Assembly (NCBI GenBank): GCA_007376535.1 | Contig: VMGK01000005.1 | Span: forward strand, 2,085 to 66,084 | DNA: 64,000 nt | Reading direction: 5' to 3' | Source: Candidatus Berkelbacteria bacterium Licking1014_7 | GTDB lineage: Bacteria > Patescibacteriota > UBA1384 > GWA2-35-9 > CG2-30-39-44 | Shown: positions 1,339-31,862 of the stretch, piece after piece | How positions within the stretch are numbered: position 1 is the first letter of the stretch | How the letters are laid out: each line of letters opens with the position of its first letter | The notes under the pieces: model-generated | The model's database searches: none | What the model was told of the DNA's origin: nothing | Seen by the model: the letters and a program-made list of their open reading frames with translations, nothing else | Made by a program: the position numbers and the translations under genes

Positions 1339-2775
1339 ATGAAAAATTTCAACAAAAAACTCATTTTGTTCATTCTGGCGCTTTTTGTGTTGTCAACCGT
1401 TGGCTTCGGCGTCCAGCAAATTTACGCTTCGTTTTTGCGCGTTTCAAATTTGAATAAAGGTTTAGTCGGGCAGTGGGATTTGTCAAAAGAGAGTATGAAG
1501 TCGGCAACTGTTTTTGGGGACAGAACCCCTTACGGAAACAACGGCACTTCGGCAAACACTCCCACCCTTACCACTGACCAAAAAGGTCAGGCGAACAAGG
1601 CTTTGAGCTTTAATGGGACGAGTGATTATGTGGGAACTGGGACGAAAGTGTTATCTTCTTTCACTGCCATTACTGTAAGTGCTTGGGTTAAGTTTAATAC
1701 AACCGCAAATTATGACGGTTGGGTTAATCAGTGGGGGTCAGGCGTCTATAATGGATATGCTCATAGGATTTCAGATTCAGCCCCATATAAACAATACTTT
1801 GAGGTAAGTATAAACGATGAGAATCATGCTATTGGCGCTACGACTTTATCTACAGGAACTTGGTATCATCTTGTCGGGACGTGGACTAGCGGAGATAATG
1901 TTAGGGTTTATCTTAATGGAACATTAGATGGTACAAGCGCAACTGTGAAGACAGGAACTATTACGCCAAACAAAAATTTTGGAATAGGTTTCCTGCAATG
2001 GAGTGGAGCGAACCCTGCGAACTATCACAACGGCTCCATTAACGATGTGCGTATATACAATCGGGCGTTGACCCAAACCGAAATCACCCAACTTTACAAT
2101 CAATACGCTCCCAAACTCCAAGTCAACTCTTTAAGCAAAGGACTTGTCGGGCAGTGGAAACTCTCGCAGGCAAGCAAAAAAGGAACATTATACGGCGACT
2201 CCACCCCTTATTCCAACGACGGAACACCAGTAGGCACAACCCCCACCACCGACAGGCACGGACAAAGCAATATGGCTTTAAGTTTTAATGGGACGAGTGA
2301 TTGGGTGGATTTAGGAAATTTTTTAACGAATTGGCAACCACAAAGTATTTATACATTATCAGTTTGGTTTAAAACTACACTATCAGGTACAAACCAAGCA
2401 GTATTTGGTAATTTACAAAGTGGAGCACATGGCTATATTATTAGGATGCAAAATGAATCTATTTCTTATACTGTCTATGGTAGTGGAGTCAACGGAGTAT
2501 CTGCTTCAGCAAACTGGGTTAATATCCCAGATTCTAATTGGAATCATCTAGTCGTAATTGGAAATAATAAGGTTTTTAGTTTTTATCTAAATGGAAATCT
2601 CGTTCCAATAACTTCAAATAATTTAGTAGATGCTTCTTATACAGTGGGTGCTACACAAAGCACTAGAATAGGAGATGCATGGGTTTTTAAATTTACCGGC
2701 TCCATCTCCGATGTCCGCATTTACAATCGGGCGTTGAGCGCCGCTGAAATTTTGCAGTTGTATAATTTGTACTAA
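1339..2775 (+). CDS. Secreted protein with two LamG-like (concanavalin A-like lectin, Laminin_G_3) domains
   Basis: Signal peptide MKNFNKKLILFILALFVLSTVGFGVQQIYA. Two repeats of LVGQW.LS ... ALSFNGTSD.V ... DVRIYNRAL..EI.QLYN. Confidence 0.7.
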   Translation: MKNFNKKLILFILALFVLSTVGFGVQQIYASFLRVSNLNKGLVGQWDLSKESMKSATVFGDRTPYGNNGTSANTPTLTTDQKGQANKALSFNGTSDYVGTGTKVLSSFTAITVSAWVKFNTTANYDGWVNQWGSGVYNGYAHRISDSAPYKQYFEVSINDENHAIGATTLSTGTWYHLVGTWTSGDNVRVYLNGTLDGTSATVKTGTITPNKNFGIGFLQWSGANPANYHNGSINDVRIYNRALTQTEITQLYNQYAPKLQVNSLSKGLVGQWKLSQASKKGTLYGDSTPYSNDGTPVGTTPTTDRHGQSNMALSFNGTSDWVDLGNFLTNWQPQSIYTLSVWFKTTLSGTNQAVFGNLQSGAHGYIIRMQNESISYTVYGSGVNGVSASANWVNIPDSNWNHLVVIGNNKVFSFYLNGNLVPITSNNLVDASYTVGATQSTRIGDAWVFKFTGSISDVRIYNRALSAAEILQLYNLY

Positions 2776-2801
2776 TCCTCATCCTTTCACCTAACCCAAT
2801 T

Positions 2802-2840
2802 TTACGACACGGAGTGTCGTAAATCGTATTTTCATTTTTT
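2802..2840 (+). terminator. Putative rho-independent terminator of the LamG gene
   Basis: Perfect hairpin TTACGACAC-GGA-GTGTCGTAA followed by a T-rich tract. Confidence 0.5.
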
Positions 2841-2857
2841 AACGAGGCTCCATCTCC

Positions 2858-2895
2858 TTGACCCGTTAGTAGTGTTCCGCACTACTTTACGGGTC
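2858..2895 (+). repeat. 38-bp palindromic mini-insertion (CCCGTtAGTAGTG-TTCCG-CACTACTttACGGG core)
   Basis: Near-perfect inverted repeat sitting exactly between codons of the LamG remnant. Removing it restores the reading frame. Confidence 0.5.
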
Positions 2896-2911
2896 GATGT
2901 CCGCATCTACA

Positions 2912-3205
2912 CCCTGTGAAATTTGTAAATTTTTGAAGATAAGATGAAATTTTATTATACTTATATCCTTAAAAGTATAAAAGACAATAAATTGTATACT
3001 GGTTCAACAAAAAATTTACAAGAACGATTTGAGCAACATTGTAAGGGAAAAGTTTTTTCAACTAAGCATCGCAGACCATTAGAATTGATATACTATGAAG
3101 CTTGCTTAAATGAAAATGATGCTCGTCGCAGAGAAAGAGTATTCAAATCTTACAGAGGTAAAATGTTTATAAAAAGAAGGCTCAAATCGTATTTCACAGG
3201 GTAAA
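2912..3205 (+). mobile_element. 294-bp GIY-YIG nuclease cassette bounded by 11-bp perfect inverted repeats CCCTGTGAAAT / ATTTCACAGGG
   Basis: Inverted repeats at 2912-2922 and 3191-3201. The segment length is a multiple of 3 and removing it restores the LamG remnant frame precisely. Confidence 0.55.
2944..3204 (+). CDS. GIY-YIG domain nuclease (UPF0213/YhbQ-like small stand-alone GIY-YIG protein)
   Basis: YTYILKS...KLYTGSTKNLQERFEQH...RRPLELIYYE...RRRERVFKSYRG matches the GIY-YIG motifs (GIY, YIG, Arg and Glu core residues). Confidence 0.75.
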   Translation: MKFYYTYILKSIKDNKLYTGSTKNLQERFEQHCKGKVFSTKHRRPLELIYYEACLNENDARRRERVFKSYRGKMFIKRRLKSYFTG

Positions 3206-3316
3206 ATCGCGCCCTCATCGCCGCCGAAGTCCAACAACTCTACAATTCCTACTAATCCCATTATTCTCTTAAACTTTTATACTCTTACACTTTGAAACTT
3301 TACCCTTGTATACTAT

Positions 3317-3413
3317 GAACCCATTGCAAATCTCTCCAATCTACTACAATATGCCACATTTGGCTACAAAATACTCATCGTTCGTCATCGTCCGCCTTGG
3401 CGGATGCTTCCTC
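3317..3413 (+). mobile_element. MITE copy, 5' half only (terminal repeat GAACCCATTGCAAA), abutting and truncating the four-helix-bundle gene
   Basis: 97 bp nearly identical to 21725-21821 and 24893-24988. Confidence 0.6.
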
Positions 3414-3696
3414 TTCCGTCTCAGTGATGAGCAATCTCGCCGAGGGTTTTGAGCGCGGAACGCGCGAAGATCAAATTTATTTTTACTATATCGCCAAAGC
3501 ATCAGCCGGTGAAGTTCGTTGTCAGCTTTACATCGCGTATGACCAGAATTTCATTACAAAACAAGAATTAGACGATAACCTTACTCTTTGCAAAAAAACT
3601 TCCGCCACAATTTACCGCTTCATTGAGAGTGTAAAAGTTTCAGAGTATAAGGGTTTAAAGTTCAGAAAACCGATTAGAATTTTGGAAAAATTATGA
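3397..3696 (+). CDS. Four-helix-bundle protein (23S rRNA intervening-sequence protein family), N-terminally truncated. The first codons derive from the MITE
   Basis: SNLAEGFERGTREDQIYFYYIAKASAGEVRCQLYIA fits the IVS four-helix-bundle consensus. The usual N-terminal half is missing. Confidence 0.5.
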   Translation: MADASSSVSVMSNLAEGFERGTREDQIYFYYIAKASAGEVRCQLYIAYDQNFITKQELDDNLTLCKKTSATIYRFIESVKVSEYKGLKFRKPIRILEKL

Positions 3697-6801: not shown

Positions 6802-7169
6802 GGAATTATCACCTAATTCTGGAAGAGATTGAATGCGGGCGGGGTTATTTCAATTCTTAATTCTTCATTTTTATTTCTTATTTTGCATTTGCATTATAGC
6901 ATAAAATGGATTACAATAAAATAAAATAAAGCAATCTCAAATCTCAAATTTCAAAACATTAAAAAGATTTAAGAATATAGAATAATCCTAATTATACGAC
7001 TGACGCAAAACTACCTTTTTATATTTTCTTGGATAATCGCTAAAAGCAATCTCAAAATCCAAATCTCCCGCCCGCCATCGCTAGCGCTCAGGCGCTTAGC
7101 GGGCAGGCAAATCTCAAAGTGTAATGCAATGTCTAAAATAAAGGGGATTAAACCGCATTTTCAAATATT

Positions 7170-7356
7170 CCATATCAATTTTCAATGACACAATTTTCAG
7201 ATATTCCTGTTTGTTACATTGAAACATTGTAAATTCAATGCCTGCCCGCCATAATTGCCTGAATGGAACACGAATGAATAATTCGAGTGGAATATCAAGC
7301 AATAAAGGTGGGTAAATTGAGAATTCTAAATTGTAAATTGAATTCAAAGTTTTAAG
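7170..7356 (+). repeat. Copy 2 of the same repeat, ending 7 nt before tyrS
   Basis: See 1110-1284. Confidence 0.65.
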
Positions 7357-7362
7357 AATAAT

Positions 7363-8553
7363 ATGAGTAAATTAACAGCGAAAATTAGCGATTTATTGAC
7401 CCGCGGAGTTTCAGAAATTATTGTTAAGCGCGATTTGGAAAAGCAACTTTTATCCGGGAAAAAATTAAGAATTAAACTTGGGCTTGATTCAAATATTCCT
7501 GATTTGCATTTGGGGCACGCAGTCAATCTGAGAAAATTGCGCGCGTTTCAGGACTTGGGGCATCAAGCGATTTTGATTCTGGGCGATTATACCGCCGCGA
7601 TTGGCGATCCGTCTGGACAAGATAAAACCAGACCGGCGGTTGATGTTTGCCAGACAAAAAAAAACGCGCGGGAATTTTTGAGGCAAGCCGGCAAAATTTT
7701 GGATAAAAATAAAACCGAGGCGCATTGTAATTCCGAGTGGTTTTCTAAAATGAGTTTTTTGGATGTTTTGAATTTGGCGTCCAAAATGACAGTTAAGCAT
7801 ATTTTGAGTCATGACACATTCAGACGAAGAATTAAAAAAGACCAGCCATTTTTTATGCACGAGTTGATGTATCCTTTGATGCAGGGTTATGATAGCGTGA
7901 TGGTGGCTGCTGATGTGGAGTTGGGCGCCAGCGAGCAGAAATTTAATTTGCTTTCTGGCAGGCGGTTGCAGAGGGCATTTGGGCAAAAAGAGCAAAATAT
8001 TTTGATGATGAGGTATTTGATTGGCACAGACGGAAAAGAAAAAATGTCTAAGACACTTGGTAATTTTATCTCTTTGCGCGACAGCGCCAGCGAGATGTAC
8101 GGAAAAATAATGTCAATTCCAGATGTATTGATGCGTGAGTATTTTGAATTATGCGCTGATTTGGAAGTTGGGGAAATTGACAAGTTGATGGTTTCAGCCA
8201 AAACAGAGCCCAAAAAAGTTAAAGAACGATTGGCTGGCGAGATTGTTAAAATGTATTATAGTGAAAAAGATGTTCAATTGGCAAAGCAAGAATTTGATAA
8301 TGTTTTTGGCGCGGTTAGCGGCGCTCCCAGCAAAATTCAGGAAGTTGGTCTGGGCGCAAAAAAAATTGTCTTACTGGGCGCGTTGGTGAAAACCGGTTTG
8401 GTTTTGTCGCGCTCCGAAGCGCGCAGATTAGTCGTCCAGGGCGGGGTGAAAATTGATCAGCAAAAAGTTGATGATGTCAATTTGATAATTGATTTGTCGC
8501 GTCCGAAAATTTTGCAAGTGGGAAAAAGGAAGTTTGTTAGGATTAAAAGTTGA
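7363..8553 (+). CDS. tyrS: Tyrosyl-tRNA synthetase
   Basis: HLGH (DLHLGHAV) and KMSKT (EKMSKTLGN) class I motifs, plus a C-terminal S4 domain. Confidence 0.9.
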   Translation: MSKLTAKISDLLTRGVSEIIVKRDLEKQLLSGKKLRIKLGLDSNIPDLHLGHAVNLRKLRAFQDLGHQAILILGDYTAAIGDPSGQDKTRPAVDVCQTKKNAREFLRQAGKILDKNKTEAHCNSEWFSKMSFLDVLNLASKMTVKHILSHDTFRRRIKKDQPFFMHELMYPLMQGYDSVMVAADVELGASEQKFNLLSGRRLQRAFGQKEQNILMMRYLIGTDGKEKMSKTLGNFISLRDSASEMYGKIMSIPDVLMREYFELCADLEVGEIDKLMVSAKTEPKKVKERLAGEIVKMYYSEKDVQLAKQEFDNVFGAVSGAPSKIQEVGLGAKKIVLLGALVKTGLVLSRSEARRLVVQGGVKIDQQKVDDVNLIIDLSRPKILQVGKRKFVRIKS

Positions 8554-18722: not shown

Positions 18723-18795
18723 TCGGGGTAGCCGGACTCGAACCGACGATCTTCGGACCCCCAGCCCGACGCTTTACCAACTAAGCTATACCCCG
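18723..18795 (-). tRNA. tRNA-Pro: tRNA-Pro (anticodon GGG)
   Basis: Cloverleaf read by hand: acceptor CGGGGTA/TACCCCG, D-loop AGTTGGTAA, anticodon loop CTGGGGG, T-loop GGTTCGAGTCC. No encoded CCA. Confidence 0.8.
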
Positions 18796-23540: not shown

Positions 23541-23616
23541 GCCGAAGTAGCTCAGTGGTTAGAGCAACTGTTTTGTAAACAGTAGGTCGTGGGTTCGAAT
23601 CCCACTTTCGGCTCCA
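23541..23616 (+). tRNA. tRNA-Thr: tRNA-Thr (anticodon TGT), CCA encoded
   Basis: GCCGAAG acceptor, anticodon loop TTTGTAA, T-loop GGTTCGAATCC, 3' CCA. Confidence 0.85.
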
Positions 23617-23843
23617 GGCAATCGGCAGGCGGGTAAACTGCCAAGGTTCCGGTTCAAGCCCGGTGGTGGGCTTAGGCGATAGCAGGCGGGTAAACTATTG
23701 GCGTCAGTTAGATTCTGACAGGGGGCTTACTCTGGCGGATTGGGGTAAACAGCCGCAGGTTTCCCGCCTGATTTTGGCAAGAAACCGATGATAAAATAAT
23801 TTTTTCATTTTTCATTTTGATTTTTAATTTGTATATAGTATAT

Positions 23844-23930
23844 GCTAGGGTTCCAGAGTGGTCAAATGGACCTGACTGTAAATCAGGTGGCTTTGTGCCT
23901 TCGGGGGTTCGAATCCCTCCCCTAGCACCA
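23844..23930 (+). tRNA. tRNA-Tyr: tRNA-Tyr (anticodon GTA), long variable arm, CCA encoded
   Basis: Acceptor GCTAGGG/CCCTAGC, anticodon loop CTGTAAA, type II variable arm, GGTTCGAATCC. Confidence 0.85.
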
Positions 23931-24012
23931 ATCGCTTCGCAGTGGAAATCCGAAATTTGAAATTTGAAGTTTAGTATATGCTATATTCGAACCGTATTAT
24001 TTTTTTTGCAAT

Positions 24013-24084
<72 letters not shown>

Positions 24085-24215
24085 AAGTAAAAATTAATTT
24101 TTCGAAATTCAAGTATTGTAATTTGAGATTTACCTATTCCGTTTTCGTAAAATGCGAAATTTCGGGATTTCTGATTTCGTGCTTTGGATTTCGAATTTAC
24201 TCCGTAGGAGTTGTT

Positions 24216-24401
24216 GTGCCAAAAAATAAAAAAAGACCATCAATTTATTTGAAATGCGAAAAGTGCAAAAGTTTGAATTATTTGTCAGTTCGCAGTGTCA
24301 TTAATACTCCGGAAAAATTGGAATTGAAAAAATTCTGCAAAAAATGCCGGGCGCACACTTTGCATAAAGAAGCGAAAATTTCCAAGCCCCGTAAGAAATA
24401 A
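24216..24401 (+). CDS. rpmG: 50S ribosomal protein L33
   Basis: CEKC...TPEKLELKKFCKKC...HKEAKI matches L33. GTG start 5 nt after TAGGAG. Confidence 0.8.
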   Translation: MPKNKKRPSIYLKCEKCKSLNYLSVRSVINTPEKLELKKFCKKCRAHTLHKEAKISKPRKK

Positions 24402-24553
24402 ACCGAAAAGATTGAGTTAAGCAAGATGTATATTGCAATCGCGAGAATATAACCAATCAAGCCAAGAGAACAAATTTCTAACGGGGCAAGGCGAAGAAGT
24501 AAGAATCACCAATATTGTTTGTATCTTGTAATTTGGAATTTATGAAAAACTAC

Positions 24554-24627
24554 GGGGGCGTGGGTTAGTGGTAAACTATCGGTCTCCAAAACCGATGCCG
24601 GAGGTTCGATTCCTCCCGCCCCTGCCA
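24554..24627 (+). tRNA. tRNA-Trp: tRNA-Trp (anticodon CCA), CCA encoded
   Basis: Acceptor GGGGGCG/CGCCCCT (G-U closing pair), anticodon loop CTCCAAA, GGTTCGATTCC. Confidence 0.8.
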
Positions 24628-25006: not shown

Positions 25007-26011
25007 ATGGAAACAAAATCAAAAAATCGAGCATCAAGAAATAGAACCATAACTTTAGATAATGGCGAGATTTCTCGCTTGAGAAAGAAACTTGTCAAAA
25101 TAGATAAGCCGGTTTCTATTTCGGATATTGAGAATAAAACTATCAATCAAGATATTTTTCAGATTTTGGATTTTTTGCCAGATAATTTTGTTAATTTAGT
25201 TTTTGTAGACCCACCTTATAACTTAAACAAAACTTTTAACTTAACTGCTTTTAAGGCAATGGAGTCCGAAAAGTATGAGGAGTGGTTAGATTCGTGGGTT
25301 CAAAAAATAATCCGTTTATTAAAACCAAATGCATCGGTTTATATTTGTGGTGATTGGAAATCATCGGGAGCAATTTTTAATGTGGTAAAAAAATATTTTC
25401 AAATTCAAAATAGAATAACTTTTGAAAGAGAAAAAGGGCGGGGCGCAAAATCAAATTGGAAAAATTGCTCGGAAGATATTTGGTTTTGTACATTTTCAGA
25501 CAAGTATAACTTTGATGTTGATGCGGTAAAAATGACAAGGAAAGTTATTGCTCCATACAAAGACGAAAACGGAAATCCGAAAGATTGGGAAATAACGGAA
25601 AATGGAAATTATCGCATAACCCATCCCTCTAATATTTGGACCGACATTACAATTCCCTTTTGGTCTATGCCAGAAAATACTGACCACCCGACACAAAAAC
25701 CAGAAAAATTGGTTGCCAAAGTTATTTTGGCCAGTTCAAAACCAAATGATATTGTTTTTGATCCGTTTCTTGGTTCAGGCACAACATCTGTTGTGGCAAA
25801 AAAACTTGGTCGTAAATATGTTGGTATTGATATAGATGAATTATATTGTTGTTTGGCAGAAAAACGGCTTGAGATGGTTGATAATGACAAGACAATTCAG
25901 GGATATTCTGACGGAGTTTTTTGGGAAAGGAATACATTAAACGAACAAAATAATGGTAAAAATAAAAAGTCGGAAAATAATCATAATTTACTTTTTGATA
26001 AACTATTATAA
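25007..26011 (+). CDS. β-class N4C/N6A DNA methyltransferase (full length)
   Basis: VFVDPPYNL (motif IV) then HPTQKP...DPFLGSGTT (motif I). Confidence 0.85.
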   Translation: METKSKNRASRNRTITLDNGEISRLRKKLVKIDKPVSISDIENKTINQDIFQILDFLPDNFVNLVFVDPPYNLNKTFNLTAFKAMESEKYEEWLDSWVQKIIRLLKPNASVYICGDWKSSGAIFNVVKKYFQIQNRITFEREKGRGAKSNWKNCSEDIWFCTFSDKYNFDVDAVKMTRKVIAPYKDENGNPKDWEITENGNYRITHPSNIWTDITIPFWSMPENTDHPTQKPEKLVAKVILASSKPNDIVFDPFLGSGTTSVVAKKLGRKYVGIDIDELYCCLAEKRLEMVDNDKTIQGYSDGVFWERNTLNEQNNGKNKKSENNHNLLFDKLL

Positions 26012-26013
26012 AT

Positions 26014-26673
26014 ATGAAAAGTCAAATATTTTACGCAGATGAGTATAAAAAATTAGAAAAGAAAATCACCGAGTTTCTTAATTCTCAAACTGATTTTTTA
26101 TCTCCACGCACAATCGACAGCCCTCGAGCTGTCGGCGACGCAATACAGGATTTATTGGCAGATAATTTTGGTAAAATTCTAGGCGATTTAAGCTCAAATT
26201 ATTCTTCGGATTTTGCCAGACGCGCCATGGCGGATTTAGCCTTTAATGACAAAGATGGGTTTTATTATGTTGTTGATGTAAAAACCCATAGATTAGATTC
26301 AAGTTTCAATATGCCAAATCTTACATCAGTTGAAAGATTGGCAAGATTTTATGAAGATGATAAAAATTATTTCATAGTATTAAAAACCGATTATAAAATT
26401 CAAAAAACAAAAATAATTATAGACAAAGTTAATTTCGTTCCGATTGAATTTTTGGGCTGGGATTGTTTGACGCTTGGTGCTCTCGGTTGGGGGCAAATAC
26501 AAATCGCTAATTCAAATAATGTTAGTATAGTTGCTAAAAACAGCAGAAAAAAGTGGATGTTGGAATTATGTGATTCTCTTTTTGAATTTTATCCAAGAGA
26601 GATTGGAAAAATAAACGACAGAATTTTATATTTCAAGCGTGTTAGAAAATACTGGGAAGGTAAAAAGGGATAA
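26014..26673 (+). CDS. Putative type II restriction endonuclease (PD-(D/E)xK)
   Basis: Begins 3 nt after the methyltransferase stop. D...VDVK arrangement (DLAFNDKDGFYYVVDVKTH) fits PD-(D/E)xK. No other homology recognisable. Confidence 0.5.
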   Translation: MKSQIFYADEYKKLEKKITEFLNSQTDFLSPRTIDSPRAVGDAIQDLLADNFGKILGDLSSNYSSDFARRAMADLAFNDKDGFYYVVDVKTHRLDSSFNMPNLTSVERLARFYEDDKNYFIVLKTDYKIQKTKIIIDKVNFVPIEFLGWDCLTLGALGWGQIQIANSNNVSIVAKNSRKKWMLELCDSLFEFYPREIGKINDRILYFKRVRKYWEGKKG

Positions 26674-27226: not shown

Positions 27227-28030
27227 TTATTTTTTGATAAATTTCTGCGCAAGTTTGGCGATAACGGCGCTGGAATCATTTTTTTCAAAAGCGCGCAGGA
27301 TTTCGATCGGTATAGCAAAAATTACAGTGTTTGATTGATCTGACGAAAGATCGTTTAAGGTATTTAAAGTTCTAAGATGCAGGGCGCCGGTTGATGATGA
27401 CAATGTTTGCGCCGCCTTGGCTAAATTTTTTGAGGCGATCACTTCACCTTCTGCTTTGGTGATAACCGCGCGTTTTTCTCGTTCTGCCTCTGCTTGTTTG
27501 GCAATCACCCGTTGCATTTCTTGCGGAAGGGAAACATCTTTCAGGTCAACATTTTCCACAGTGATGCCCCAAGGATCAGTGAGTTTGTCAACAATGGTCT
27601 TAATCTGATTAGACACATCGTCGCGTTTGGAAAGCAAAGTGTCCAGATCAACTGAGCCAACAATATTTCGCATCGTGGTTTGGGCTATCTGCGAGATAGC
27701 GTAGTAAAAATTTTCCACTTCAAGTACAGCTTTCGACACATCAGCAACTTTGTAGTAAATGACCGCGTTGATTTTGACTGAAATATTATCGCGCGTGATG
27801 GCTTCTTGGTCTGGCACATCCACTGCTTTGACACGAATATCCACTTTGATTAGCGATTCAATGATTGGCAAAATTAGTCGCCAGCCCGGATTAATAATAT
27901 TGACAAATTTTCCCAGCCGAAATTTGACACCGCGTTCAAATTGGTTAATTTGGCGAATACTAACCAGGATTATGATTAAAATTACAATCGCTATAACTGA
28001 AAGGATGAGAGTGTCTAAAAAAAAGTTCAT
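27227..28030 (-). CDS. SPFH/band-7 (stomatin/prohibitin-like) membrane protein
   Basis: N-terminal TM then the characteristic RGVKFRLGKF...DLK..SLP and coiled-coil EAEREKRA region. Confidence 0.8.
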   Translation of the reverse strand: MNFFLDTLILSVIAIVILIIILVSIRQINQFERGVKFRLGKFVNIINPGWRLILPIIESLIKVDIRVKAVDVPDQEAITRDNISVKINAVIYYKVADVSKAVLEVENFYYAISQIAQTTMRNIVGSVDLDTLLSKRDDVSNQIKTIVDKLTDPWGITVENVDLKDVSLPQEMQRVIAKQAEAEREKRAVITKAEGEVIASKNLAKAAQTLSSSTGALHLRTLNTLNDLSSDQSNTVIFAIPIEILRAFEKNDSSAVIAKLAQKFIKK

Positions 28031-28155
28031 AATTTTTTTTGTTTATTTTTGTTTATTTATGATATTATACAAAGAAATTGAGAAAGATGTCAAGGGATCC
28101 AATTTTGTGATGATTTTTAGAGGACTTTGTGATATATTTGTGATATAATACAATT

Positions 28156-28461
28156 ATGCAGAAAGAAAAAAATAAATTTCCCAAATTCTTAAAACGATAT
28201 TTTTGGGACACGGATTTTTCATTGCTTGATAGGCAAAAAAACCAAAAATATATTATTGAGCGGATTTTGGATTGGGGCGATGAACAGGGTATTGAATGGT
28301 TGTTTCAGACCTATTCAAGCCAAGAAATTAAAGCGGTGGTATTAACATCGCGAGAATTATTTAAGAAAAGCATTAATTTTTGGGGAATCATTTTAGAGTT
28401 AGGAGAAAAATGGAGGAAAGAGGCATTAGCGAAAAGACAAAACAAAATTTGGAATTATTAG
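28156..28461 (+). CDS. Small hypothetical protein upstream of and overlapping the AbiEii-like gene (possible antitoxin partner)
   Basis: 101-aa ORF with a 52-nt overlap with the downstream gene. No recognisable domain. Confidence 0.35.
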   Translation: MQKEKNKFPKFLKRYFWDTDFSLLDRQKNQKYIIERILDWGDEQGIEWLFQTYSSQEIKAVVLTSRELFKKSINFWGIILELGEKWRKEALAKRQNKIWNY

Positions 28462-29051
28462 CCAAAACACATTTTATTGGACAATTTTATTTAGCCGGCG
28501 GAACGGCTTGCGGTTTGTATTTTGGGCACAGAATTTCTTATGATTTAGATTTTTTTTCCGAGCGAAAATTTAACGCGCAGAAAATCAGAGATGAGTTAGA
28601 AAAAATGGGCGAACTCAAAATAGACATTATTGACGAAAATACTTTTTTGGGTTTTTTGAATAAAGTAAAGATAAGTTTTTTTTATTATAAATATCCGCTG
28701 ATTGGCGAGACGCAGGTCTATAGAGGGGTGAGGATTGTTTCAAAAAAGGACTTGCAGGCAATGAAAATTGACGCTTTGCAGTCGCGCGGCACAAAAAGGG
28801 ACTTTATTGATTTGTATACGATTTTGCAAGCAGATAATTATTCTATAAAAAACGCATTAGATAATTTTAAGGAAAAATACCAAAAGGCAAATTATAATAT
28901 GGAGCATATTTTGATGAGTTTGGTATATTTTGAAGACGCGGATAGGGATAATCGTCTCAATATGTTGGTATCATACGACTGGGAAAAAATAAAAAATTAT
29001 TTTATTGAGGACGTTAAAGCATACGAAAAAAATAGATTAAAAATCGATTAA
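28410..29051 (+). CDS. AbiEii/AbiGii-family nucleotidyltransferase (DUF1814-like) toxin candidate
   Basis: LAGGTACGLYFGHRISYDLDFF resembles the GG(T/S)AL...R.S.DIDF motif of AbiEii toxins. AGGAG RBS 4 nt upstream. Confidence 0.5.
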   Translation: MEERGISEKTKQNLELLAKTHFIGQFYLAGGTACGLYFGHRISYDLDFFSERKFNAQKIRDELEKMGELKIDIIDENTFLGFLNKVKISFFYYKYPLIGETQVYRGVRIVSKKDLQAMKIDALQSRGTKRDFIDLYTILQADNYSIKNALDNFKEKYQKANYNMEHILMSLVYFEDADRDNRLNMLVSYDWEKIKNYFIEDVKAYEKNRLKID

Positions 29052-29092: not shown

Positions 29093-29290
29093 GAACCCAT
29101 TTCAAAAATCCATATATTGCACATCCATCGTCTGGCTGAATGGGCAGCTGCAACAGCAGATATTCTGGCTGCAAAGATTAGAATAATTCGTCAACAGAGC
29201 TTCTGGCTATGCTTCCTCATTATTCTAACTTTTCGCTCATAATCTCTACTGTTTCGCTCCTCAATCAACCAGACGATGGATGTGGGTTCT
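29093..29290 (+). mobile_element. Complete MITE copy (about 198 bp)
   Basis: Begins GAACCCATTTCAAA and ends GGATGTGGGTTC. Confidence 0.55.
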
Positions 29291-29424
29291 TTTATCTGCT
29301 ATTTTGGCTGCAAACAATTCAGAGCTCGTCAGTGTCCGCCAAGGCGGATGCCTTCTCGCTCTTCATTGTTTTCGCTCAAAATATCAAATAAAATTATCAA
29401 AAGAGAGTTTTATAATGGGTTCCT
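29291..29424 (+). mobile_element. Second, 5'-truncated MITE copy in tandem. Its 3' terminal repeat TTTTATAATGGGTTC contains the ATG of the downstream gene
   Basis: TTTTGGCTGCAAA ... TCCGCCAAGGCGGATGC ... TTTCGCTCAAA ... ATAATGGGTTC. Confidence 0.55.
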
Positions 29425-31862
29425 ACAATTCGTTTGAGAATTTTATTCATAAAATAAAAAGGCGAACTTATTTATCGTTATTTTTGTCGGTTTTGGTGGT
29501 GGTTGGTTTTGGCGCGGGATTGATTTTTTGGTCTAAAAATGTTTCACGCGGGGCGACTACTTTAAGTGGAACTATCAATGGCTTACGGACAATTAGCGGA
29601 GACGCGGTGATCAAGACCAACCAAACAGTCACTCACGATCAGGGAAATACTACCGGAGGAACAGGATTGGGAGTGAATGTGAGTGGCACTTTAACCTTGG
29701 AAGCCGGCGCCAAAATTGATGTGAGCGGGAAGGGATATAAGGGGGGATATATTTTTTTTAGCATGAATAATATAGGTGGTTATTATTATACAGCTTTATT
29801 TCCGGCTAAGGGAAGCAAGGATGGCAACGCTCCTCAACAGCAAAATCAAGCTGGTGCCGGCGGAGACTGGGAAAATGGCGGGGCAGGCGGCGGCACAGGA
29901 TATAGAACGGCAAATAGACTGGGCGTTGGCGGCGGCGGCGGCGGCGCGTTTGGCTATGGCTCAGGCGGAAAAACCAACCATTCTTCGGCAAGCCCTGGAT
30001 GTTATGGCGGCGGCGGCGCGGGCTGGAAAGGCAAGGGCGGGGCAGGCGTTTGTTCTGGATCGGCGGTTAACGGTGCAGTAAGCGCCAGCATAAATTTTTC
30101 TAATGACAGTTGGTATAATAACGAGATTCTTTTTGGCGCTGGCGGCGCCAGCGGATTTACCATTACGCAGGATAACTCGGAGGGTGATGGCGGCAACAGT
30201 GAATGCGTCAAAGGCGGCAATGGCGGAGGGGCGGTAAAAATAAAAGCCAAAAAATTAAAAATTGAATCCGGGGCAAGCATATCGGCGGCAGGAAAATCGG
30301 GCGGAAAAATGTGCGATCTGGCTTATAGAGTAAAGTGGTTAACTTTTGGACAATTTACTTTGGGAGCGGCTGGGGGAGGCGGAACAATTTATATTGAGGT
30401 TGACGAATTGGAATTGCCTAGCGGTAATGATTATAATTTTGATGTTTCAGGCGGCGATGGTTGGGGGGCGCTGAGCGGGTCGATGTGGGCATCTTCCGGA
30501 GCAGGAGGCGGAGGGATAGTTGTAATTAGAATCGCAGGGGGAGGAAAAATAAAAATCGGGAATAATTATGTAGATAACTTTGCGACGGTTTACGCCAGAG
30601 CAGATTCCAACAAAGGCATGCTTCGCAATATCATAAACGATGTTTATATTTTAACCCAGAAAATACCTGATAGTGCTTGGGGGGGAGACGGCAAAGAAAT
30701 TTTTGCCGGCAATCCGACCATTCCCGGTGGTTCCACCACCTGCGACACATCAAAAATTAAATTGACTGATCCGTCGTTTTCCAGCCAACCGGCGGCGAAT
30801 TCTCATTACCAGCGCGGTGATACTTTTTCCTATAAGGCGCAATATATTAGTCAAGACAGCGGTTCAAATTGTTCTGGCAAGTATCAATTATATTTCCAGA
30901 CCGCTTTATCAAATGATTTAGAATTTATTGGTGGCAGTAAATTGACTCCCGGAAATTTAGATCCAACAATAGGTGGCGGTTTATTTTCAACTCAACATTG
31001 GGAAGTAAATTCAGCCGGTTCTTACACTGGTGATATTAAGATAAAAATAAAAGATAATGCTTGCAATCAGGCAGGCGGCGGCGTTGAGAACAAAATTCAA
31101 ATTTATCAAAAATACGATAATGGTGTGCTGATGGCGCCATCATCAGGAAATCCAGTTTACTCTAATGCGAATATAATTGTTGATTGTCCGGGCGTGGCGA
31201 TTTCCGGCAATGTTGGCGCAAGCAGTATAACTACGCCCGATCTAAAAATTATCGGTAATTCAGTGGTGGCGATTACGGGTTCCTCGTCAGCCACGCTTGA
31301 TTCACAAGTAGTAAATTTATCTGGTTATACCCATTCAATCAATTTTTCCGACATAAATACAAATTTTGAAGCGCTAAAAACCCGGCGGGCAATTAAGCCG
31401 AATCCTTGGACAAATAATTTTAATTTGAATAAGTACAATAAACCCGAAGGTGGAGTGTGGAAAGAACATCCTACCCCTATGAATAGAACTTTTCTGCAAG
31501 GGTCGCGAGGCACGATATTTCATACTGGCGATTTGACAATAGATGGAATTTCTTGGCAAGGCGCGACGGCTGGTGTTTTGGGCATCGTGGTGAAAGATGG
31601 TAATGTGATGATCAAAGATTTAAATTTAAAAAATGTGGCGATTTACGCGTACGACACCGGTGGCGCGGAAGACGGAAAAATCACTTTTGGCACGGGCGCA
31701 ACGGACGAAACATTAGACATGACCGGTTCGTTTGTCGCTAAAAGCATTGAAATTAAAAGTAAGAAGGGTAATATTAAACATTCGGACGGATTAGATAAAA
31801 ATCCTCCGCCCGGATTTTCTAACTTGCAGTCGCAAATAAAAATTTTAGAAAAAGCGCGGTAG
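29415..31862 (+). CDS. Large glycine-rich secreted/surface protein (N-terminal signal anchor, predicted β-helix/adhesin-like)
   Basis: TM segment LSLFLSVLVVVGFGAGLIFW followed by long GGxGGxG tracts and NxxG repeats. Confidence 0.55.
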   Translation: MGSYNSFENFIHKIKRRTYLSLFLSVLVVVGFGAGLIFWSKNVSRGATTLSGTINGLRTISGDAVIKTNQTVTHDQGNTTGGTGLGVNVSGTLTLEAGAKIDVSGKGYKGGYIFFSMNNIGGYYYTALFPAKGSKDGNAPQQQNQAGAGGDWENGGAGGGTGYRTANRLGVGGGGGGAFGYGSGGKTNHSSASPGCYGGGGAGWKGKGGAGVCSGSAVNGAVSASINFSNDSWYNNEILFGAGGASGFTITQDNSEGDGGNSECVKGGNGGGAVKIKAKKLKIESGASISAAGKSGGKMCDLAYRVKWLTFGQFTLGAAGGGGTIYIEVDELELPSGNDYNFDVSGGDGWGALSGSMWASSGAGGGGIVVIRIAGGGKIKIGNNYVDNFATVYARADSNKGMLRNIINDVYILTQKIPDSAWGGDGKEIFAGNPTIPGGSTTCDTSKIKLTDPSFSSQPAANSHYQRGDTFSYKAQYISQDSGSNCSGKYQLYFQTALSNDLEFIGGSKLTPGNLDPTIGGGLFSTQHWEVNSAGSYTGDIKIKIKDNACNQAGGGVENKIQIYQKYDNGVLMAPSSGNPVYSNANIIVDCPGVAISGNVGASSITTPDLKIIGNSVVAITGSSSATLDSQVVNLSGYTHSINFSDINTNFEALKTRRAIKPNPWTNNFNLNKYNKPEGGVWKEHPTPMNRTFLQGSRGTIFHTGDLTIDGISWQGATAGVLGIVVKDGNVMIKDLNLKNVAIYAYDTGGAEDGKITFGTGATDETLDMTGSFVAKSIEIKSKKGNIKHSDGLDKNPPPGFSNLQSQIKILEKAR

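Follow-up and report, generated by a model that had tools for sequence, protein, structure and literature searches.

Nucleotidyltransferase toxins of the DUF1814 class, as found in the AbiE and MenT systems, rank with the most abundant of defence and toxin–antitoxin systems. Their control by unrelated antitoxins is an active question. MenA1, MenA3 and AbiEi, three antitoxins that are unrelated to one another, are reported to bind their DUF1814 toxins and to induce the auto-phosphorylation of these (PMC11375011; bioRxiv 10.64898/2026.01.19.700257). The phospho-acceptor lies two residues before the catalytic aspartate, and has been identified as T39 in MenT1, S78 in MenT3 and T65 in AbiEii (PMC11375011; bioRxiv 10.64898/2026.01.19.700257). 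One of them, MenA1, has no DNA-binding domain and does not autoregulate. This article deals with two overlapping genes within a 64,000-nucleotide stretch of DNA (hereafter the window) from Candidatus Berkelbacteria bacterium Licking1014_7, a bacterium of the candidate phyla radiation (CPR), corresponding to positions 2,085 to 66,084 of contig VMGK01000005.1. The upstream open reading frame (ORF-A) encodes a protein of the DUF6922 family, and the downstream one (ORF-B) a short nucleotidyltransferase (NTase) of the DUF1814/AbiEii/MenT type. With a probability of roughly 0.6, we read the module as a DUF1814-class toxin–antitoxin pair having a previously undescribed antitoxin family, in which ORF-A neutralises ORF-B by binding to it, perhaps via auto-phosphorylation of Ser43.

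Both genes lie on the forward strand. ORF-A, the proposed antitoxin of 101 amino acids (28156..28461; Pfam PF21956), runs from an ATG at 28156 to a TAG at 28459-28461, while ORF-B, the proposed toxin of 213 amino acids (28410..29051; PF08843), runs from an ATG at 28410 to a TAA at 29049-29051. In GenBank they are named CEN89_206 and CEN89_207 and both are labelled “hypothetical protein.” The frame of ORF-B is two bases out of phase with that of ORF-A ((28410-28156) mod 3 = 2), and the two share a dual-coding overlap of 52 nucleotides on the same strand (28410..28461), which covers part of residue 85 through residue 101 and the stop codon of ORF-A, together with residues 1-17 and the first base of codon 18 of ORF-B. 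A preliminary description of this DNA had given the same protein sizes, coordinates and overlap. The ribosome-binding site of ORF-B, read from the sequence as AGGAG at 28401..28405 (forward strand), sits within ORF-A, 4 nucleotides ahead of the ATG. Because of this site, and because the homologues begin at a methionine aligned with position 28410, ORF-B is taken to be the 213-residue form: M1 is invariant in 20 aligned ORF-B homologues and present in at least 90% of the 111 in a larger alignment. The TTG at 28380, from which a mechanical list of open reading frames would start a protein of 223 residues, was rejected on the same grounds. Both frames match Pfam profiles above cut-off, and for this reason they are taken as genuine genes rather than chance open reading frames.

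Upstream of ORF-A the signals are fainter. Two possible -10 elements can be read on the forward strand with low confidence, TATAAT at 28144-28149 and TACAAT at 28149-28154 (together 28144..28154), and a consensus scan proposes TTGTGA-16-TACAAT, with 9 of 12 matches, ending at 28154 directly before the ATG. The same scan of the region found promoter-like sites around ORF-A in a number not above that of shuffled sequence. No Shine-Dalgarno sequence was seen on reading the DNA ahead of ORF-A, and its transcript is possibly leaderless, a suggestion of low confidence.

That ORF-B belongs to the DUF1814 class follows from several lines of comparison. It matches the Pfam family AbiEii (PF08843) with 54.6 bits (E-value 1.9e-14), well above the curated cut-off of 22.5, and thereby passes the profile check that the preliminary description had named as decisive for its DUF1814 assignment. 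Twelve AbiEii models of PADLOC also match it, weakly (E-values from 4e-8 to 9e-3), and searches of NCBIfam and PHROGs returned nothing meaningful. The GG(T/S)A...DLDFF signature noticed in that description is present in residues 30-49 (GGTACGLYFGHRISYDLDFF), within what constitutes NTase motif I (residues 27-49, YLAGGTACGLYFGHRISYDLDFF; 28488..28556, forward strand). Conservation in homologues there singles out GG-x13-DLD, R41 and the putative phospho-acceptor S43, and the rule hG[GS]-x9-13-Dh[DE]h is obeyed by A29-G30-G31, 13 residues and D45-L-D47-F. Motifs III and IV occupy residues 118-135 (MKIDALQSRGTKRDFIDL; 28761..28814, forward strand) and, again by conservation in homologues, comprise K119 and R126 for motif III (K...R) and D131 and D134 for the DUF1814-specific motif IV (DxxD). 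All 111 homologues keep G30, G31, H40, R41, S43, D45, D47, K119, R126, D131 and D134. Residues 50-110 include the (near-)invariant T78, G81, K87 and S89, and hold no invariant acidic residue that would provide the motif II carboxylate in the sequence alignment.

The correspondence with MenT1 can be followed residue by residue: R41, S43, D45, D47, K119, D131 and D134 of ORF-B answer to R37, T39, D41, D43, K137, D149 and D152 of MenT1 (numbered as in PMC11375011), and the spacings of +12 and +15 from the lysine to the two aspartates are identical in both. S43 stands two residues before the catalytic D45 (R41-I-S43-Y-D45), hence at the phospho-acceptor position, this equivalence being drawn by motif and not by structural superposition. 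An AlphaFold2 model built from the alignment of 111 homologues is of high quality, with a predicted local distance difference test (pLDDT) score of 95 and a predicted template modelling (pTM) score of 0.90. Its top Foldseek matches in the Protein Data Bank (PDB) are JHP933 (E-value 1e-6), MenT1 (4e-5) and MenT4 (7e-4), followed by CCA-adding enzymes and ANT(2''), so that the attribution to the AbiEii/DUF1814 toxin family made earlier agrees with the predicted fold, which is closest to solved DUF1814 toxins. Sequence searches of the PDB gave zero matches, whether with the single sequence or with a profile; since only fold comparison gives the link to MenT and JHP933, ORF-B represents a remote subfamily. 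By profile and by model, it is a member of the DUF1814 (AbiEii/MenT) family with all catalytic residues predicted to be intact.

ORF-A matches Pfam DUF6922 (PF21956) over profile positions 1-52 of 52, with 62.8 bits and an E-value of 2e-17 (cut-off 27). Pfam lists this as a family of unknown function, and no mention of DUF6922 or PF21956 was found in the literature searched. An exhaustive HMMER search collected relatives forming 1224 clusters at 50% identity, mostly of 75-125 residues. The conserved motifs of ORF-A are FWDxD (16-20), ERILxxGD (35-42), W48, NFW (74-76) and a C-terminal tail ending in KIWNY; in the family alignments these appear as FWDxD, ER(I/L)LExGD, W48 and SRxLSxKSxNFW, to which the longer forms add a basic tail ending in IW-x-Y. 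The AlphaFold2 model is all-helical, with six helices (pLDDT 81, pTM 0.73) and a tail of lower confidence. It has no solved structural relative, as single sequence, profile and fold all lack a match in the PDB, and PADLOC, NCBIfam and PHROGs gave no match either. More specifically, neither an AbiEi nor a winged helix-turn-helix match was found in Pfam, PADLOC or NCBIfam, and no HEPN match in Pfam. The absence of a canonical AbiEi with its winged helix-turn-helix, as initially remarked, is thus borne out by the searches and by the all-helical model. Of the “reduced or novel partner” then proposed, the second adjective was the right one: to judge from profile and model, ORF-A belongs to the separate family DUF6922 and is not a reduced AbiEi.

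Part of the family also carries a DNA-binding domain. In a minority of relatives an HTH_3, HTH_17, HTH_26 or HTH_11 helix-turn-helix (HTH) domain is fused to the N-terminal side of DUF6922, and an HTH_3-DUF6922 fusion still has the NTase downstream with the 52-nucleotide overlap; ORF-A itself consists of DUF6922 alone, without any DNA-binding domain. The usual architecture of antitoxins is a swappable DNA-binding domain ahead of a constant domain. Such swapping before a constant DUF6922 therefore makes DUF6922 plausibly the toxin-neutralising portion. Long stop-to-stop frames upstream of DUF6922 in some Chloroflexi loci were also considered as fusions and were discarded as low-complexity read-through, with a methionine just before the domain. 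One protein of 186 residues (P0132) carries two DUF6922 domains in tandem.

How faithfully do the two genes travel together? Two surveys bear on this. The NTase-seeded one, which took a single genome for each species, turned up at least 525 relatives of ORF-B, from which 80 loci were kept; these span CPR lineages, Chloroflexi/Anaerolineae, Aminicenantes/Acidobacteriota, Omnitrophota, Atribacteria, Cloacimonadota, WOR-3 and others, and include one Pacearchaeota contig. An intact DUF6922 frame lies directly upstream on the same strand in 78 of the 79 testable loci, the 80th (L061) ending at a contig edge. The sole exception, from Candidatus Atribacteria 4572_76 (L062), is an in-frame deletion fusion of DUF6922 with the NTase (L062:1824-2549), where a deletion at a run of A leaves residues 1-42 of DUF6922, continued by the NTase from residue 9 or thereabouts. 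This NTase has DLS instead of the catalytic DLD and K instead of the conserved G39, and is probably a dead toxin. The DUF6922-seeded survey covered 80 metagenome loci, 76 of them with room downstream, and used the closer of two alignments (A3), the diverse one (A2) being without a conserved stretch. An NTase was found directly downstream of DUF6922 in 66 of the 76 and not in the other 10. Among these 10, several adjoin housekeeping-type frames (on reading their translations), four have only 310-440 nucleotides of downstream sequence, and one retains a C-terminal NTase remnant. At L147:2747-2944 only the C-terminal end of the NTase follows DUF6922, the catalytic GG...DLD part being gone, and in P0202 and P0205 DUF6922 is fused to an NTase without its catalytic N-terminus; all three look like decayed toxins beside intact partners.

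Taken together, DUF6922 does occur alone, in small numbers, and an intact NTase without DUF6922 was never seen in the loci surveyed. This asymmetry of loss is what would be expected if the NTase were a toxin and DUF6922 its protector. The two families also diversify together (Mantel r 0.72, p 0.001, n=133). No third gene conserved with the pair was found in the flanks of 80 loci, where the most frequent neighbour is a toxin–antitoxin module of the MNT/HepT kind, recognised by an MNT of the Polbeta/NTP_transf_2 type and a HepT of the HEPN type, in 7 of 80 cases (L018, L021, L046, L050, L056, L059, L071); its presence beside the pair suggests small toxin–antitoxin islands. A conserved and co-diversifying two-gene unit set in variable contexts is the signature of a toxin–antitoxin system.

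Some of the surveyed loci have peculiarities of their own. The Patescibacteria locus L059 has the complete DUF6922–NTase pair twice, some 2 kb apart (at approximately 600-1500 and 2700-3612), and L014 (at about 2137) and L054 (at about 1532) have an extra, more divergent AbiEii-like frame upstream of the pair. In three Levybacteria loci (L003-L005) the pair is flanked by genes with 23S_rRNA_IVP and bAvd domains (1963-2334, 7065-7493), which resemble accessory genes of diversity-generating retroelements, and the flanks also hold several T4SS-pilin genes.

The overlap itself is conserved too. It measures exactly 52 nucleotides in 97 of 133 unique DUF6922–NTase pairs; the remainder mostly have a short DUF6922 of about 80 residues, which ends past the NFW helix with an overlap of 8 nucleotides or a gap of a few bases. 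In 88 of 92 overlapping pairs the Leu14 codon of the NTase is CTG or TTG (YTG) followed by G, which places a tryptophan in the frame of ORF-A, and this arrangement is seen in none of 18 non-overlapping pairs (Fisher p of about 4e-17, a value inflated by shared descent). In NTase codon 17 the last two bases are nearly always TA, which fixes the position of the ORF-A stop. Since synonymous sites should be scrambled at the mean protein divergence of about 56-60% found among the pairs, this codon bias is attributed to selection on the tryptophan, and the Trp of the ORF-A tail is accordingly one that is selected in its own right. In the long DUF6922 forms the overlap is read as combining translational coupling with a functional C-terminus. 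A programmed -1 frameshift yielding a fusion protein was considered too, and rejected: comparison of the loci shows no conserved slippery heptamer within the overlap.

How could a small basic protein restrain such an enzyme? In the toxin–antitoxin pair that we propose, ORF-A would be translated first, and the translation of ORF-B would be coupled to it through the 52-nucleotide overlap. If it works like MenT1, MenT3 and AbiEii, ORF-B would extend the 3′-ends of tRNA with nucleotides and so halt translation. ORF-A would bind directly to the NTase, close to the active site, where it may drive the invariant Ser43 toward the bound nucleoside triphosphate; the toxin would then phosphorylate itself and so be silenced. 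Auto-phosphorylation of Ser43 is favoured because three unrelated antitoxins are reported to induce phosphorylation at that position and because S43 is invariant. Like MenA1, ORF-A probably does not autoregulate its own transcription, because it is a stand-alone form without a DNA-binding domain. The steps that we infer are toxicity, tRNA as the target, direct contact between the two proteins, phosphorylation of Ser43 and whatever part the pair may play in phage defence. A bolder formulation, conceivable and at present doubtful, would make DUF6922 the fourth class of “small” DUF1814 antitoxins, structurally new, by far the most widespread and concentrated in CPR and other uncultured lineages, with a type VII-like trigger at Ser43 and with a Trp-containing tail that keeps the same 52-nucleotide overlap across phyla and enters the active site.

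Several facts weigh against these proposals. Membership of the DUF1814 class guarantees neither phosphorylation, as MenT4 is not phosphorylated by its antitoxin MenA4, nor toxicity, as none is detectable for MenT2. The surveyed pairs are related by descent, and the counts and p-values given above overstate the number of independent events. DUF6922 proteins are uniformly basic, with a median isoelectric point of 9.8 in alignment A3 (their NTase partners are near neutral, with a median of 7.7); this is atypical of nucleic-acid-mimicking antitoxins and leaves room for a nucleic-acid-binding role. Short-form DUF6922 partners lack the selected C-terminal tail, so that the tail is not essential to the family and cannot be the core of the mechanism. 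Finally, relatives of the module are absent from IMG/VR, PLSDB plasmids and GenBank phages, which leaves no tie to mobile elements or to phage defence, and around the pair in the window no prophage or plasmid signs were seen; a role in phage defence is unsupported, though conceivable.

Some of the same facts feed the alternatives. A serious rival, if an unlikely one, retains the toxin–antitoxin pair and makes neutralisation a matter of stoichiometric sequestration alone, as in a classical type II system, with Ser43 conserved only for catalysis. MenA1 indeed blocks the phosphorylation-deficient MenT1 T39A through binding alone, MenT4 is not phosphorylated by MenA4, and the tight coupling provided by a toxin ribosome-binding site and start lying inside the antitoxin gene fits stoichiometric control. 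Moreover, T39 of MenT1 contributes to full NTase activity (PMC11375011), which could by itself explain the conservation of the residue. What speaks for phosphorylation is that it has been reported at the position equivalent to Ser43 for three structurally unrelated antitoxin families, and that the R-x-S-x-D arrangement is invariant among ORF-B homologues. Sequence cannot discriminate between these two mechanisms. A narrower and rather improbable objection concerns the tail of ORF-A, which would be functionless: shared descent and constraint on the NTase N-terminus would suffice to explain both the overlap and the conserved tail. It is true that the N-terminal TKxNLxLL motif of ORF-B is conserved with or without gene overlap, that the conserved Cys of the DUF6922 tail is accounted for by the ATG-T with which the embedded toxin gene starts, and that the short-form partners manage without a tail; against this stand the Leu14 codon, so sharply divided between overlapping and non-overlapping pairs despite their divergence, and the TA ending of codon 17 that keeps the stop in place.

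Two other rivals do away with the polarity or with the toxin itself, and neither sits well with the asymmetry of loss or with the patchy distribution. DUF6922 might bind nucleic acid as the accessory or specificity subunit of an NTase that is not toxic and serves housekeeping RNA modification or repair, for instance by bringing the enzyme to a tRNA or another RNA, or else it might be a transcription factor of the operon. The strongly basic character of the family agrees with this, as do the resemblance of the ORF-B model to CCA-adding enzymes and ANT(2''), the chromosomal context in the window (tRNA, DNA polymerase III delta' and pilus genes) and the lack of detectable toxicity of MenT2. We nevertheless find it very improbable. 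Patchy spread over very distant phyla, variable flanks and adjacent toxin–antitoxin modules are unlike a housekeeping function; an accessory subunit would be lost before its enzyme or together with it, whereas decayed NTases are found beside intact DUF6922 and no intact NTase is found alone; and the fact that relatives have gained HTH domains of four different families argues against DUF6922 itself supplying DNA binding. In MNT/HepT type VII systems, on the other hand, the NTase is the antitoxin. Such a precedent, together with the MNT/HepT modules that adjoin some DUF6922–NTase pairs, would allow the roles to be reversed, with DUF6922 as a toxic protein and ORF-B as the antitoxin silencing it by nucleotidylylation. 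This is barely credible, as DUF6922 without NTase (10 of 76 loci) or beside degraded NTases would be lethal if it were the toxin. Furthermore, ORF-B groups by hidden Markov model and by fold with the DUF1814 toxins and not with MNT, and DUF6922, as the upstream gene and the HTH-fused partner, has two features typical of antitoxins. A toxin–antitoxin pair with the NTase as toxin and DUF6922 as its antitoxin thus stays our preferred reading.

In the window, the pair is surrounded by genes of various kinds. About 1.5 kb upstream, a DNA methylase N6/N4 (PF01555, 150 bits) is followed 2 nucleotides later by a 219-residue frame without Pfam or PHROG match (25007-26673 together), which may encode an unclassified endonuclease and would then form a type II restriction-modification pair with the methylase. 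Four tRNA genes (Thr-Tyr-Thr-Trp; 23541-24627) lie upstream of the methylase, and a tRNA-Pro is found at 18723-18795. Between the methylase region and ORF-A, and divergent from the latter, is an SPFH/Band-7 gene on the reverse strand (27227-28030), preceded by a perfect match to the TTGACA-18-TATAAT promoter consensus on the same strand (28064-28093). Directly downstream of the pair, and ahead of pilN/pilO/T2SSE genes, comes a glycine-rich frame of 860 residues without Pfam match (29280-31862), which may encode a surface or pilus-associated protein.

The interest of the module goes beyond this one genome. The at least 525 species-representative genomes having a relative of ORF-B come mostly from CPR, Chloroflexi, Aminicenantes, Omnitrophota and similar uncultured groups, and tools for finding defence systems, which define AbiE as AbiEi plus AbiEii, probably miss DUF6922–NTase pairs. 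Diverse antitoxins for DUF1814 toxins were already to be expected, yet DUF6922 is a large and uncharacterised family concentrated in uncultured lineages. A role for it would annotate more than 1000 protein clusters, and would add another independent antitoxin fold with which the generality of antitoxin-induced auto-phosphorylation could be tested. As for the 52-nucleotide overlap, it would provide a clear-cut case from nature of two genes whose dual-coding overlap is deeply conserved.

Where, then, does the pair stand among known systems? Among solved structures, JHP933 of Helicobacter pylori (PDB 4O8S, 4OK0) resembles the ORF-B model most; it is likewise a short stand-alone DUF1814 NTase, with a template modelling score of about 0.55 and an identity to ORF-B of only 16-19%. 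MNT/HepT systems are defined by a minimal NTase (PF01909/PF18765) and a HEPN RNase, whereas ORF-B matches AbiEii and ORF-A has no match to HEPN. With AbiE (AbiEi/AbiEii of Lactococcus and Streptococcus agalactiae), MenAT3 and MenAT4, the locus shares a PF08843 toxin with NTase motifs I, III and IV, and an antitoxin gene placed upstream in a bicistronic operon. The antitoxins differ, however: AbiEi, MenA3 and MenA4 are COG5340 proteins made of an N-terminal winged helix-turn-helix and a C-terminal neutralising domain, and ORF-A has neither. The toxins differ in size as well, ORF-B being about 90 residues shorter than MenT4 or toxins of AbiEii size, and its PADLOC AbiEii scores are weak. Because no PADLOC model matches ORF-A, the locus is not expected to be called AbiE by that tool, and because there is no COG5340 AbiEi upstream it is best described, on present comparisons, as AbiE-like or MenAT-like and not as a member of AbiE. 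The preliminary description had suggested an abortive-infection or type IV toxin–antitoxin pair; the toxin–antitoxin character is supported, the AbiE definition does not apply, and even for AbiE itself the label of type IV is no longer current, because AbiEi is reported to bind AbiEii and to induce AbiEii auto-phosphorylation (bioRxiv 10.64898/2026.01.19.700257).

A close parallel is MenAT1 of Mycobacterium tuberculosis (Rv0078B/Rv0078A). The two pairs share a short NTase toxin of the DUF1814 class (about 190-210 residues), a small upstream antitoxin without a DNA-binding domain and the common catalytic set R-x-[ST]-x-D-x-D ... K-x11-D-x2-D, and MenT1 is among the top structural matches of the ORF-B model. 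No significant sequence match links ORF-B to MenT1, and ORF-A has no sequence or profile match to any PDB chain, that of MenA1 (8AN5) included. MenA1 is a 68-residue two-helix “V” for which only 21 homologues were found; ORF-A, in contrast, is a 101-residue protein predicted to fold into six helices, whose family fills at least 1224 clusters at 50% identity. By sequence and model, the pair is therefore not a homologue of MenAT1 at the level of the antitoxin. In the literature searched, no paper was found that joins DUF1814 with the candidate phyla radiation, or AbiEii with NetFlax. The link between DUF6922 and DUF1814 NTases is established in the present analysis, as are the two length forms of DUF6922 and its HTH fusions.

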